A DNA stretch of 64,000 bases from an uncultured bacterium (GTDB lineage Bacteria > Babelota > Babeliae > Babelales > Vermiphilaceae). Under the pieces are notes generated by a model that saw only the letters and a list, made by a program, of their open reading frames with translations, was not told the origin of the DNA and made no database searches. Positions 37,215 to 41,896 of the stretch are shown piece by piece (within the stretch, counting starts at the first letter, position 1; each line of letters begins with the position of its first letter). The DNA lies in contig OY970212.1 of assembly GCA_963713925.1 (NCBI GenBank), positions 640,001 to 704,000 on the forward strand, read 5' to 3'. The position numbers and the translations under genes were made by a program.

Positions 37215-38255
37215 CTAGTGTAGATCTATTTTATGAATAGTTACTCTATTATGGCCGTAATTGCAAACCGCTAAATAGTTCCCGTCAGGAGAAATTGAAA
37301 AGCCATGAGGGAAGCTCAATTGGGCATCCGGATTAGTCAGCGCACATTCCTTATGGAGTATATGACCGGTACTTGAATCAAAAGCATATACCACGATTGA
37401 ATCATTTCCTTGATTTGAGATAAAGATATGAGATCCGTTTGGATGAAATGCAATATTTTCCGGCACATCAAGATCCAAGGATTGAGAATAAAAGACGGGT
37501 TGAGGATTGAGAGATCCGCCCTGAGCATCAAACTTGAACGTTGCAACAGCTGCAATCGTATTGTTAGCAATAGTGCTTGCCCGTAAAGAATAGACTGCTG
37601 CTAGATAACGAGAATCAGGCGAGAAGTCTATGCCTTTGGGTTTCAGGGGATAAAAAACATTTTCCAAAGATGAGCAGAACTCAAAATTATCAGTTCCCTC
37701 TTTCTTTTTACACATATGTATGTAACCGGGTCTATTAATAGTGGTGTATGCCAAGAATTGGCAACTCGGAGAAAATCTAACGCCATGGGTGTTATATTCG
37801 CCATTTATCCCCTGTATAGTTTTTAAAAAATGTAATTGACTATCAGGACTGAGCGAATAGAGGTTTATTTTTGCACGGCTTTCTTTGAGTGGCACGTGAT
37901 CATACAAACTAACAGCATAATATTTTTTATCTTTTGATACATGATCCAGTTCAGGATTACCATTTAGATTTTGCATGACTTGTACAATTTCTGCATGAGA
38001 GCCATTAATGCGATATACATAAATCGATTTATCATAGAGGTTTGAAATAATTAACGTATGTTCGTCAAACCAACTTACACTCGTGCAGGTAGAATATCTT
38101 GATTTGCTTTCTTTAACCTGTAAGCGAAAATCAGAACTAATATTTTCCATCGTGCTGGCGGGCAGAGTGATGGAAAATAATGGTTTGTTATCTATGGTTA
38201 AGCAGTTAATAAAATTACACGCAAACAGGCTTACTATAATCATTTTATTGTTCAT
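37215..38255 (-). CDS. Lactonase-like beta-propeller protein
   Basis: HGVRFSP, PKGIDFSPD, PENIAFHPNG and PHGFSISPDG repeats. Confidence 0.8.
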   Translation of the reverse strand: MNNKMIIVSLFACNFINCLTIDNKPLFSITLPASTMENISSDFRLQVKESKSRYSTCTSVSWFDEHTLIISNLYDKSIYVYRINGSHAEIVQVMQNLNGNPELDHVSKDKKYYAVSLYDHVPLKESRAKINLYSLSPDSQLHFLKTIQGINGEYNTHGVRFSPSCQFLAYTTINRPGYIHMCKKKEGTDNFEFCSSLENVFYPLKPKGIDFSPDSRYLAAVYSLRASTIANNTIAAVATFKFDAQGGSLNPQPVFYSQSLDLDVPENIAFHPNGSHIFISNQGNDSIVVYAFDSSTGHILHKECALTNPDAQLSFPHGFSISPDGNYLAVCNYGHNRVTIHKIDLH

Positions 38256-38472
38256 ACAATTCTCTTTTTTTAAGCAGATCGTTAAAAAATTTATCTGGCA
38301 TTCGCTTGTTCTCGATCGAATTAGGATTCTTTTCTAAAAATTTTTTAAATGTAACTTCGATTTGAGCATAGCAAACAATTTTTTGAGAGCCAATCCCGTA
38401 TTTTGGATAAGAGCTTATACGAAAATTAAGCTTTCTAGCTAAAAAGTAATTGTGTTAAAAGTCAATTAATTT

Positions 38473-39414
38473 TTAAGCACTACATACTTCGCCCTTTTTC
38501 AAGATAACATTTGCAATGATGATCAGCTTTCGCATTACTGCAACAATAGCTACTTTAAAGCTTTTTTTGTTTGCTATTAGTCGATCATAAAAGGATTTTA
38601 AAGGAGCATAATACTTAATAGTCGTTATAGCACACATATATAATGCATTTCGAGGAATAATCCTACCGCCTTGAATGAACCGTTTGCCTGTATAGTTGCC
38701 ACTTTCTCGATCGTAAGGACAAACTCCGACAAGGGCTGCTATTTCATTATTGCTTACAGATCCAAGTTCAGGCACAAACGAAATCAATATCGCGGCCGAA
38801 GATTTACCGATTCCCGGGATTGATTCCAAAAGCTCTGTCCGTTTCTGCAGTACCGCATCTTGATCAATCAATTCTTCAATTTGTTCATCCAAAGCCTTGA
38901 TCTCTTTATTTAAAAAGAGGATCATTCTTTCGATACTTGAAACACCGAGTGCATGCGAGGGGTGTTTAAGTCGAGTTTTTTCAGTTGCCAAAAATTTGGT
39001 CAAATCCTGCTTTCGATTAACCAAAGATAGCAATGTTTCTTGGTTATGAGTTCTGCTGACTGGCTCATAATCTTGAGAATTCTTCGATGCAAATTCAGCA
39101 ATTTTTTGTGCGTCTATTTTGTCTGTTTTGCTTTTGCAACCAGTTGCGATTATAAAACCCTTTATCCTCCGTGGATCAACTATCCAACAACTATAGGAAT
39201 GTTCCTGTAATACCCGAGTAAGCAATTTTTCGTAACCACCGGTTGCCTCACATGCAATTTGCTTAATACTGTAATTGGATAATTGCTTCACAAACTTTTT
39301 TATTCCGCTTTCTGTATTGGGTATTTTAACCCATTGCTTCAACGGATGAATAAAAATGTCCAAATTGTTCTTTGAAATATCGACGCCGATAAATACTTCT
39401 GGTAGGGTAATCAT
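38473..39414 (-). CDS. IS110 family DEDD recombinase/transposase
   Basis: FIGVDISK, CEATGGY, KTDKIDA (RuvC-like DEDD), SIPGIG and P..RESG catalytic Ser. Confidence 0.96.
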   Translation of the reverse strand: MITLPEVFIGVDISKNNLDIFIHPLKQWVKIPNTESGIKKFVKQLSNYSIKQIACEATGGYEKLLTRVLQEHSYSCWIVDPRRIKGFIIATGCKSKTDKIDAQKIAEFASKNSQDYEPVSRTHNQETLLSLVNRKQDLTKFLATEKTRLKHPSHALGVSSIERMILFLNKEIKALDEQIEELIDQDAVLQKRTELLESIPGIGKSSAAILISFVPELGSVSNNEIAALVGVCPYDRESGNYTGKRFIQGGRIIPRNALYMCAITTIKYYAPLKSFYDRLIANKKSFKVAIVAVMRKLIIIANVILKKGEVCSA

Positions 39415-39625
39415 AAATACCTCATCCTTGTAAACATTCGAGGTCGTATTAATACGCCTCTAGTAATTGTTCGAGGTAATTTCGTATAAGCTGATAGTCT
39501 CAAACTTTTTAGCAATCGATTACGATTAGGGTTGGCGCGAGCTCTATCAGCTTTTCCCGAGCAACTAATTTGTGAAACAATATACCGATCACAAATTAAT
39601 ACATTATCTATCAAAATTTGAATCA
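39415..39625 (-). ncRNA. Predicted bridge RNA (5' hairpin, target-binding loop, donor-binding loop)
   Basis: Guides match the target (39528-39535, 39505-39513) and donor (39462-39470, 39427-39432) and each pair is enclosed by stems; ends approximate. Confidence 0.88.
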
Positions 39626-39631
39626 ATTTTT

Positions 39632-39637
39632 AACATA
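39632..39637 (-). promoter_or_regulatory. -10 box (TATGTT) of the circle-junction promoter; -35 TTGACT at 38460-38465
   Basis: Joining the two ends gives TTGACT-17 bp-TATGTT. Confidence 0.75.
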
Positions 39638-39771
39638 CAAGGGTTGGTTGTCATGCCGAACTTGTTTCAGCACCAAGGTTAAGTAGATCCTGAAATAAAT
39701 TCAGGATGACGTAACAATAAGGAACTTCTGGGATTTTCGGATAAGCTCTAAAATAAATGGGAAATCAAAGA

Positions 39772-40290
39772 TTATTGCTTATAAGCCACATGTGCTTTTG
39801 AAATCACATCGAGCGCCGTCTTTTTATCATGCCAATCCCTGACTGTGCACGATTTGCCGGCCTCAAGTTGTTTATAGGTAGCAAAGAAGTGCTGAATTTC
39901 TCGTTTAAGCTGCGAGTTAACTTGATCGATGCTCTCTATGTGTCCATAATAGGGATCATCTTGCGCAACTGCCAAAATCTTCCAATCGTGGCCCGCTTCG
40001 TCTTCCATATCAAGTGCGCCGATAGGGCGTGCTTTCAAAACGCAGCCGGGAAATGTTGGCTGGGTAATGAGCACTAAGATATCAACATGATCCCCATCGT
40101 CGGAGCGTGTTTGCGGGATAAATCCATAATCACTCGGATAAAAGAGAGTTGAATGAAGCACGCGGTCAAGATGGATCAATTCGGTATCTTCATTATATTC
40201 ATATTTGTTTCGCGATCCGCGCGGGATTTCAATCACAACGTTGACTGATTCCGGGAATTTATTACCGATGGTGAGTTTTGAAAACGACAT
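39772..40290 (-). CDS. ppa: Inorganic pyrophosphatase (family I)
   Basis: IEIP.GSRNKYE, YP.DYGFIPQT..DDGD..D, DEAG.DWK. Confidence 0.96.
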   Translation of the reverse strand: MSFSKLTIGNKFPESVNVVIEIPRGSRNKYEYNEDTELIHLDRVLHSTLFYPSDYGFIPQTRSDDGDHVDILVLITQPTFPGCVLKARPIGALDMEDEAGHDWKILAVAQDDPYYGHIESIDQVNSQLKREIQHFFATYKQLEAGKSCTVRDWHDKKTALDVISKAHVAYKQ

Positions 40291-40474: not shown

Positions 40475-41896
40475 TTACTCAACAATCTTACCTTCTTTGG
40501 TCAATTGAGCATTCTTACGACCAACATACAATGCTGCGGCCATCCAAATACCCACAAGGCCAAATCCGATGAATGTACCATACATCATCAAGTCGCCGAG
40601 ATTGTGTTTGAACATATCGCTCACACGTGCACCGCCCGCTTTTGACATACGGCCACCGAACATATCAATCCAACCTTTTGATTTGAATTTAGCATCTTTG
40701 CTGGTTGGGATGTACATCATTTCTTTGGTTGGGTTACTGACTGCATATGAAAGACCTTTTGCAAGCATCATCACACCAAAAGTAGCCCACAGGAGTTGGC
40801 CTGCGTCTGGAGAGGTTAAGAAATAACCATAGAGAATTGCAAGCGCAACGCCCAAGCAAGTAGGGAACACAAGCAATGAGAAGGTCAAGCCATATTTTTT
40901 AATAATGTAGCTGGTTCCAAGCAATGCCATAACAAGCGCAAGTCCGTTGGTTGCCATTCCGTAGATTGAGAGGAATTGTTGGAAGTTTTCTTTCAACCCG
41001 TAGACTGGGTGAAGGGAAGCTTGAGACTTCATTTGGTAGTCAACGATAGTGTTGATCACTTCGTAGAAAGTTGAAACAACCAAAATACCGAGCAAATAAC
41101 CGCGAGTTAAGAGCAATTTGATACCTGCCAAGAATCCTTCAAGGAATCCTTCTTTTTTCTTTTCCGTAGCATGAGCAGTTTTGTTACCCAAACGTTCATT
41201 TTCGGGAATGACAGTCATGAACATGTTGATTGCAAACATAATAGCAAATAAGCACAGTGTGCAGAGCAAGAATAATTGCCATGGTCCGACAAAGTAGTTC
41301 AATGCTGATCCCGCAATCGCCCCAAATTGTCCCAAGGCGATGATCATCGGATAACCCTTTTTAGCGCTGTCTGCAGTGATCACACTTGCGCAGAAAGACC
41401 AGAAAAGAGCAACCAAGATTGATCCGAAAGATTCAATGGCAAAATAAGAAACCCAGCCAATTGCAGCAAGTGTTGTTTTTCCAAGGTATGCGCTACCATA
41501 TTGCGCTTGTAAGAACAAGCCGGCAACAACGCCACCAAAAATGAGAGCGTAGAATCCGCAGAGAATGTAAAACAATTTGTGTTTTTCAAATAAGTCAACG
41601 AGCTTGGAATAGACAATAACGAGCGCAAACACTACAACAACGGATAGTGTTTTTGCGAGTGGTTGGTAAAGTTGACCTTGGTGTGCAGCCCATCCGAGCT
41701 CAGCAGGGAAAGCGAGTTTGAAGAAAATTACGTCTTTTAACAAACGGACAGCCCAATAGGCGCCGATTGTAAAAAAGAATGCAAGTGCTAATATCCCGAA
41801 CTTTTTAATTTCGTCTTTTCGTAAGTCGGGATAAAAGTAGGTAACCATACTCGTAAACATAGTGTTCTCACCTTTCCAAGGCAGATTATAAATCAA
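40475..41896 (-). CDS. Npt1/Npt2 (TLC) family ATP/ADP or nucleotide translocase
   Basis: Multi-TM protein with R.LKD, LFW, K...Y....PTKEMMYIP and K.K.WID.FGGR..KAGG; start probably MFTSM. Confidence 0.9.
   Translation of the reverse strand: MIYNLPWKGENTMFTSMVTYFYPDLRKDEIKKFGILALAFFFTIGAYWAVRLLKDVIFFKLAFPAELGWAAHQGQLYQPLAKTLSVVVVFALVIVYSKLVDLFEKHKLFYILCGFYALIFGGVVAGLFLQAQYGSAYLGKTTLAAIGWVSYFAIESFGSILVALFWSFCASVITADSAKKGYPMIIALGQFGAIAGSALNYFVGPWQLFLLCTLCLFAIMFAINMFMTVIPENERLGNKTAHATEKKKEGFLEGFLAGIKLLLTRGYLLGILVVSTFYEVINTIVDYQMKSQASLHPVYGLKENFQQFLSIYGMATNGLALVMALLGTSYIIKKYGLTFSLLVFPTCLGVALAILYGYFLTSPDAGQLLWATFGVMMLAKGLSYAVSNPTKEMMYIPTSKDAKFKSKGWIDMFGGRMSKAGGARVSDMFKHNLGDLMMYGTFIGFGLVGIWMAAALYVGRKNAQLTKEGKIVE

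Follow-up and report, generated by a model that had tools for sequence, protein, structure and literature searches.

An IS621-type IS110 element with readable bridge-RNA guides, inserted in a dispersed palindromic repeat of an uncultured bacterium

Introduction

Elements of the IS110 family have already been surveyed across thousands of orthologues. The locus described here, part of a 64,000-nucleotide stretch of DNA from an uncultured bacterium (the window, in whose coordinates positions are given unless stated otherwise), raises the question of whether an individual insertion is an intact RNA-guided recombinase system whose four guides can be read from its leader, and how far each of those guides extends. 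A first-pass annotation of the window had proposed an intact IS621-type element with a CT core and a compact enzyme, preceded by a leader holding left target, right target, left donor and right donor guides (LTG, RTG, LDG and RDG) in that order, with a long right target guide. The names borne by the closest homologues, together with a neighbouring ATP/ADP transporter, suggest a host among the Dependentiae (Babeliales). No report of IS110 in Dependentiae was found in the literature searched; the supplements of PMC11208160, in the portions available, do not carry that name and may list the clade under other identifiers.

Results

The genome (1.32 Mb) contains three copies of the element (genome positions 679641-678445, 1277391-1276195 and 1121218-1122414), and because all three have identical ends its boundaries were fixed without guessing (Table 1). 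When the flanks of each copy are rejoined without the element, they match empty copies of the surrounding repeat, with a 2-bp CT core and the target restored. The copies differ at two sites, both silent changes within the coding sequence, and the encoded protein is 100% identical. The left end, which carries the bridge RNA, is 227 bp long, and the right end (38472-38445) is shorter than 30 bp.

The recombinase scores 69 bits against the RuvC-like DEDD domain PF01548 (cut-off 29) and 51.6 bits against PF02371 (cut-off 21.3), and its residues 8-309 align with ISCro4 (E 2e-38) and IS621 (E 1e-37). Catalytic residues D12, E56, D98, D101 and S238, whose counterparts in IS621 are D11, E60, D102, D105 and S241 (PMC11208158), are invariant in 55 homologues, and hydrophobic wedge residues are found at Y259, M260 and I263. 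The open frame, the five catalytic residues and the three near-identical copies bear out an intact IS621-type element with a CT core that has transposed recently. Combined with the guide covariation and shuffle controls described below, they refute the alternative that the element is decayed or that its resemblance to a bridge-RNA system is due to chance, an explanation that we consider vanishingly improbable. The suggestion of a compact enzyme is not supported: IS621 has 326 amino acids, the published range is 300-460, and the length seen here is usual among the 120 homologues listed.

Relatives matching at E 1e-40 occur in 21 of 261 genomes of the phylum. No relative was found among the viral contigs searched, and the 2,598 plasmid records that match are all below 60% identity, the best among the matches listed being ~38%. 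A search of Rfam with 38000-40200 gave nothing above the gathering score and four weak matches. Upstream of the element, on the same strand, lie genes for a TLC ATP/ADP transporter and an inorganic pyrophosphatase (40475-41896 and 39772-40290, respectively, minus strand), read-through from which could feed the low transcription that excision needs. In one related locus (L016, ~955-991), the first 18 bases of the element are tandemly duplicated at the left end.

Table 1. Features of the element, its bridge RNA and its insertion site (window coordinates)
Feature	Position	Strand	Remarks
IS110 (IS621-type) element, core to core, 1,197 bp	38445..39641	-	three copies, identical ends
Bridge recombinase CDS, 313 aa	38473..39414	-	PF01548 and PF02371 above cut-off; ISCro4/IS621 alignment
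5' hairpin of bridge RNA	39566..39598	-	
Candidate anti-LDG segment, complementary to DBL 5' strand and LDG	39556..39567	-	one mismatch here; putative function
Target-binding loop (TBL): stem, LTG, inner hairpin, RTG, handshake guide	39488..39553	-	
LTG GCCAACCCT, 9 nt	39528..39536	-	
G-containing linker before RTG	39513-39512	-	G39513 in 22/22 leaders
RTG TAAAAAG, 7 nt	39505..39511	-	covariation at positions 10-14
TBL handshake guide TT	39503..39504	-	first base complements donor position 7; 21/22 elements
Donor-binding loop (DBL)	39418..39478	-	
LDG ACAATTACT	39462..39470	-	
RDG, most likely split: AT (39437-39436), 4-nt bulge, ACAAG (39431-39427)	39427..39437	-	
DBL handshake guide GA	39425..39426	-	G complements target position 7
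Likely ribosome-binding site GAGG, DBL closing strand	39423-39420	-	5 nt before ATG
Left donor ACAATTA	38447..38453	-	equals LDG in 22/22 elements with both ends
Right donor TGTAT	39635..39639	-	
Sub-terminal inverted repeat GTTAAAA	39628..39634	-	complementary to TTTTAAC at 38460-38454
-35 box TTGACT	38460..38465	-	junction-promoter motif
-10 box TATGTT	39632..39637	-	junction-promoter motif
Left target ACCAACC and left core CT	39640..39648	-	
Right core CT and right target TTTTA (positions 10-14)	38440..38446	-	
Host palindromic repeat, left part, interrupted by element	39642..39752	-	
Host palindromic repeat, right part, interrupted by element	38407..38444	-	

The element interrupts a dispersed palindromic repeat of ~150 bp, and insertion of IS110 elements into palindromic repeats is already known (PMC11208160). 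Three of the 25 copies that could be anchored are occupied, all at the identical CT position, and these three are the ones that match the guides, an outcome with random odds of 1 in 2,300, or of 1 in 220 if just the 12 perfect or one-mismatch repeat sites are counted. Genome-wide, no empty 14-mer matches the guides even with G:T wobble allowed, and the 14 sites with one mismatch, nine of them within the repeat, are all empty. Every perfectly matching site in the genome is already filled, although the T-run lengths behind this result may carry assembly errors; most mismatches at empty repeat copies are differences in T-run length. Such saturation is not general, as 14 near-matching sites stand empty in genome G155, though none do in genome G156. 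Short parts of the repeat were found in 11 of 60 relatives. We propose that the element uses the repeat as an intergenic safe harbour.

Each of the three copies is situated a few bases 3' of a repeat hairpin arm, and for ISPpu10 a hairpin in the target has been reported to contribute to target choice (bioRxiv 10.64898/2026.03.19.712850), such that recognition here could likewise depend on the DNA hairpin of the repeat besides guide pairing. We think this unlikely, as the guide match alone accounts for occupancy, with every perfect 14-mer in the repeat and filled, and as the one-mismatch sites within the hairpin-bearing repeat are empty; all perfect sites lie in the repeat, with none outside it at which hairpin and guide match could be told apart.

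Individual repeat copies show further peculiarities. In an empty copy at genome positions 873319-873395 (plus strand), 9 nt at the target core are tandemly duplicated and two C's are missing, which may be the scar of an aberrant insertion or excision. At the other two insertions, the repeat copies (1121048-1121217 and 1277392-1277552) contain an extra ~60-bp module between the hairpin arms, and a similar module flanks the insertions of related elements. One of four copies fetched for a relative (L012) matches the right target guide at 4/5 positions and the left guide at 1/6, and resembles an off-target or half-match insertion.

When folded, the leader forms a 5' hairpin followed by two looped stems (z = -3.63; 1 of 200 shuffles was as good). 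The stems listed in the first-pass annotation are present at 39598-39589/39575-39566, 39553-39544/39497-39488 and 39478-39473/39423-39418, its motifs at 39535-39528 (CCAACCCT), 39513-39505 (GCTAAAAAG), 39470-39462 (ACAATTACT) and 39432-39427 (TACAAG), and the LTG-RTG-LDG-RDG order was borne out. In the minimum-energy fold, part of the LTG is drawn as paired. Across 22 leaders, pairing reaches 95-98% in the DBL closing stem (96%), the TBL stem (98%) and the two inner hairpins (95.5% for that of the TBL, in which three of the four pairs have two-sided changes). Two-sided changes also occur in the TBL stem and the other inner hairpin; the DBL closing stem has none. The structure overall is 96% paired and has 12 two-sided pair changes, a total that includes the anti-LDG helix discussed below, compared with 5.3 in shuffled and 2-5 in slid controls.

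Most of the bases that contact the protein in IS621 have counterparts in these leaders. A G is located two bases 5' of each of the four guides in 22/22 leaders, and at three of the four this G is itself preceded, at a distance of five bases, by an invariant A; the bases bound by Tnp in IS621 are G48, G72, G121 and G155, and A43, A67, A116 and A150 (PMC11208158). The position equivalent to A67 is a C in the window element and a G in 13/22 leaders. Leaders of a distant group (L107, L110, L112, L114, L117, L119, L121, L123 and L024) share a recurrent motif in the loop of the 5' hairpin, G(G/A)(A/G)C(G/A)(C/T)T, and the hairpin that carries it directly precedes the target loop.

The first-pass annotation had named a lack of covariation between guides and targets of orthologues as one of the observations that would refute its interpretation; the comparison was carried out here, and covariation is present. 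The close clade (at least 55% identity) supplied 30 sites from 23 distinct elements, with L005 and L102 dropped for want of anchors, and one site per element was used to compare each element's own guides with shuffled partners (usable flanks n=17 on the left and n=20 on the right). Left target positions 5, 6 and 7 match the guides in 12, 14 and 17 of 17 elements (shuffled 5.7, 5.4 and 10.3; p<0.001), positions 2-4 covary weakly (p 0.02, 0.025 and 0.009), and several relatives match their own left target poorly. On the right, positions 10-14 match in 19, 19, 19, 14 and 18 of 20 (shuffled means 6.8, 7.3, 11.8, 4.8 and 7.3; p<0.001). Because the elements are related, these permutation p-values overstate significance. 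When the leader was shuffled 200,000 times, no shuffle combined the three longest guide matches, which arose singly at rates of 0.0006, 0.047 and 0.0019.

The 8-nt match first described for the LTG (CCAACCCT) stands, but the full guide is 9 nt long (GCCAACCCT), and its position 1 pairs perfectly in one copy and by a G:T wobble in the other two. The LTG is shorter in 14 of the 23 clade elements (leaders L002, L011, L020, L091-L101 and L105), where only 6 nt and the core separate linker from inner hairpin; the loop remains ~32 nt long in these, and the linker base may pair at position 1.

The RTG had been described as a long guide of 9 nt, GCTAAAAAG, which would pair over 9 bp (core plus seven) and exceed that of characterised systems. 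The string does match 9/9 in the window copy, eight positions plus a wobble match in the other two copies (which have a T at position 16), and in one relative (L017) positions 15-16 match as well. We nonetheless judge pairing over this length to be very improbable. In the identical rows that yield the signal at positions 10-14, positions 15 and 16 match in 4/20 and 3/20 (shuffled 4.6 and 3.0), that is, at chance level; the two bases are GT in 18, GA in three and GC in two of 23 elements, the G being invariant whatever the target and resembling the protein-bound G72 of IS621 (PMC11208158); and the wedge residues, which delimit a 14-bp bubble in IS621 (PMC11208158), are conserved here. Given the lack of covariation at positions 15-16 and the invariant G, the RTG is therefore of the known 7-bp form, and GCTAAAAAG resolves into a GC linker and a 7-nt guide. 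Natural RTGs of this longer kind have already been reported (PMC11208160), as have longer guides for other bridge-recombinase orthologs.

On the donor side, the LDG is equal to the left donor in all 22 elements compared, across three variants. The RDG is complementary to the right donor, which is nearly invariant, and hence lacks covariation support. It had been taken as a contiguous 6-nt segment (TACAAG), but G39439 and A39444, both invariant, set a register in which the guide begins at A39437, and on this basis the RDG is most likely split (AU...ACAAG) in the manner described for IS621 (PMC11208158). The first base of the TBL handshake guide pairs with the non-cognate position 7 in 21/22 elements, and that of the DBL handshake guide does so in 17/18 (shuffled mean 11.2); the second handshake base gave no signal among the clade elements. 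In the window element, the handshake comprises one pair before and two pairs after strand exchange, and in IS621 a gain of pairs on exchange favours insertion (PMC13626964).

The ends of the element were compared in 41 elements, a set from which 10 loci without an end were left out and in which the mis-anchored L098 and L114 were kept. A putative promoter, TTGACT-17-TATGTT, forms only once the ends are joined by circularisation; it is found in this exact arrangement in 27/41 elements and is thus conserved as a motif. Scanning the locus in its linear form for promoters yielded 3 matches versus 5.1 expected. No RNA run with the element was listed among sequencing runs; contigs from two DNA runs contained no joint of the ends, and since none of these contigs spans the element they do not bear on circle formation. 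The inverted repeat at the ends is 7 bp long and flanks the donor. Its first three positions are complementary in 37, 39 and 39 of the 41 elements, covariation is limited to positions 1 and 4, and beyond 3-4 bp, where it is without covariation, A/T tracts may explain it.

RNAalifold predicted that a segment just 5' of the TBL pairs with the DBL 5' strand and the LDG. Over 22 leaders, this anti-LDG helix (8 bp) shows 94% pairing and varies between A-U and G-U and between C-G and U-G; its duplex energy beats dinucleotide shuffles (p<=0.05) in 20/24 clade elements, as compared with 2/23 and 4/39 for more distant groups in the identical test; and it dominates the predicted ensemble in 17/23 clade elements. 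The clade with the helix has a support of 100/100 in a tree from which L104 was omitted (frameshift). A match in a distant leader with a changed guide (L113; p 0.025) was not counted, since 23 tests would be expected to yield one such result by chance. The segment complements RNA (GAACAATC) better than it does the DNA donor (ACACAATC). The helix is also in competition with the closing stem of the DBL. The 3' strand of that stem is GAGG, a motif kept 5-8 nt before the ATG in 22/23 elements, and this competition with a stem bearing the likely ribosome-binding site suggests a fold switch.

The leader of this clade might accordingly act as a protein-sensing translational switch in addition to its role as a bridge RNA. 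In protein-free RNA, the anti-LDG segment would pair with the LDG, break the DBL closing stem and free the ribosome-binding site; binding of the recombinase would force the DBL fold, bury GAGG and turn off its own translation. The conservation of the helix, its predicted energy and ensemble share, its preference for RNA over donor DNA and the kept position of GAGG are all consistent with such a switch, and ISPpu9 provides a precedent in which leader structure hides the ribosome-binding site (PMC8450116). Several observations point the other way. The helix of the window element is predicted with a probability of 0.03 and has a mismatch that is private among the 22 leaders; the sole two-sided change represents one event (L001 and L017 are sisters), and three other leaders break the pair; the adjacent hairpin arm is about equally conserved (0.85 vs 0.875); GAGG is open at a median of only 0.31 when the helix is forced, in a crude automatic register; and clade members are not independent. 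A literature search for a bridge-RNA fold switch found no report. We therefore put the switch forward as a tentative, rather doubtful addition to the main interpretation.

Discussion

The element is, very probably, an autonomous and recently mobile member of the IS621 type that uses the IS621 cycle. By analogy with IS621, from which transcription, circle formation, tetramer chemistry and programmability are carried over, the recombinase would excise or copy the element to give a circle, a choice between cutting and copying that is unsettled for IS621 itself (bioRxiv 10.64898/2026.08.31.748434). The joined ends would then create the junction promoter, from which the left end would be transcribed as both bridge RNA and recombinase mRNA. 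The target loop would pair with the 14-bp target (A/G)CCAACC-CT-TTTTA within the host repeat, and ACAATTA-CT-TGTAT would pair with the donor loop. At the CT cores, two recombinase dimers with bound RNA would cleave through serine 238, forming serine-linked intermediates, and exchange strands prior to resolution, with the handshake bases expected to favour insertion over excision.

Apart from the possible extra RNA fold of its clade, the element follows the textbook design, and it leaves the known mechanism unchanged; the anti-LDG helix, if real, would matter more, as it would account for the use of a single transcript as both mRNA and guide. A switch of this kind, if true, would set the ratio of RNA to protein automatically, with one transcript shared between the two uses, and RNAs of this clade would best be engineered without the anti-LDG segment. 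The ortholog is also a distant bridge recombinase with a natural 7-bp RTG and with target, donor and guides resolved, and could be included in genome-editing screens. It represents a clean natural case of specificity, in which three perfect sites are filled and one-mismatch sites are empty. Guides in the clade have been retargeted many times, often to apparently different palindromic repeats, and this natural variation, together with IS621, suggests that RNA guidance is reprogrammable here.

Comparison with known systems

Elements of the IS1111 group (seekRNA; PMC11187229) share the protein families found here and have sub-terminal inverted repeats of at least 7 bp. Their left end is short and their RNA is located in the right end, however, whereas the arrangement here is the reverse, and membership of that group is ruled out by the RNA-bearing left end of 227 bp and the right end of less than 30 bp.

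ISPpu9 and ISPpu10 of Pseudomonas putida are IS110 elements that, as here, reside in palindromic repeats (PMC8450116, PMC12288879, bioRxiv 10.64898/2026.03.19.712850). In ISPpu9, leader structure limits translation by hiding the ribosome-binding site, an effect relieved by an antisense RNA (PMC8450116, PMC12288879). Besides that antisense RNA, ISPpu9 has a promoter of its own and AG as its core, whereas the candidate regulator here is a segment in cis. For ISPpu10, a target hairpin adds specificity (bioRxiv 10.64898/2026.03.19.712850).

The best match to a solved structure is ISCro4, or IS622 (PDB 9T56; E 2e-38), which is alike in architecture but distant in sequence. ISCro4 is reported to be active in human cells (bioRxiv 10.1101/2025.05.14.653916), whereas the element described here is known from sequence alone.

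The closest parallels are with IS621 of E. coli (PDB 8WT6), as described in PMC11208160, PMC11208158 and PMC13626964. Common to both are a recombinase with RuvC-DEDD and Tnp-serine domains, a bridge RNA at the left end with a 5' hairpin, TBL and DBL, a CT core, 14-bp sites, a G two bases before the guides, a split RDG, a position-7 handshake, a junction promoter and insertion into palindromic repeats. The two differ in several dimensions: the natural RTG is 7 bp here versus 4 bp (extendable to 7) in IS621, the RDG bulge 4 nt versus 2, the handshake 1 and 2 pairs before and after exchange versus 1 and 3, and the end repeat 7 bp versus 2-3. The host phylum and the target repeat also differ, and comparison of the anti-LDG segment was confined to leaders other than that of IS621. 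Those features defining the IS621 type that could be compared are all present in this element, except for the A at position A67, which IS621 has and this element does not.
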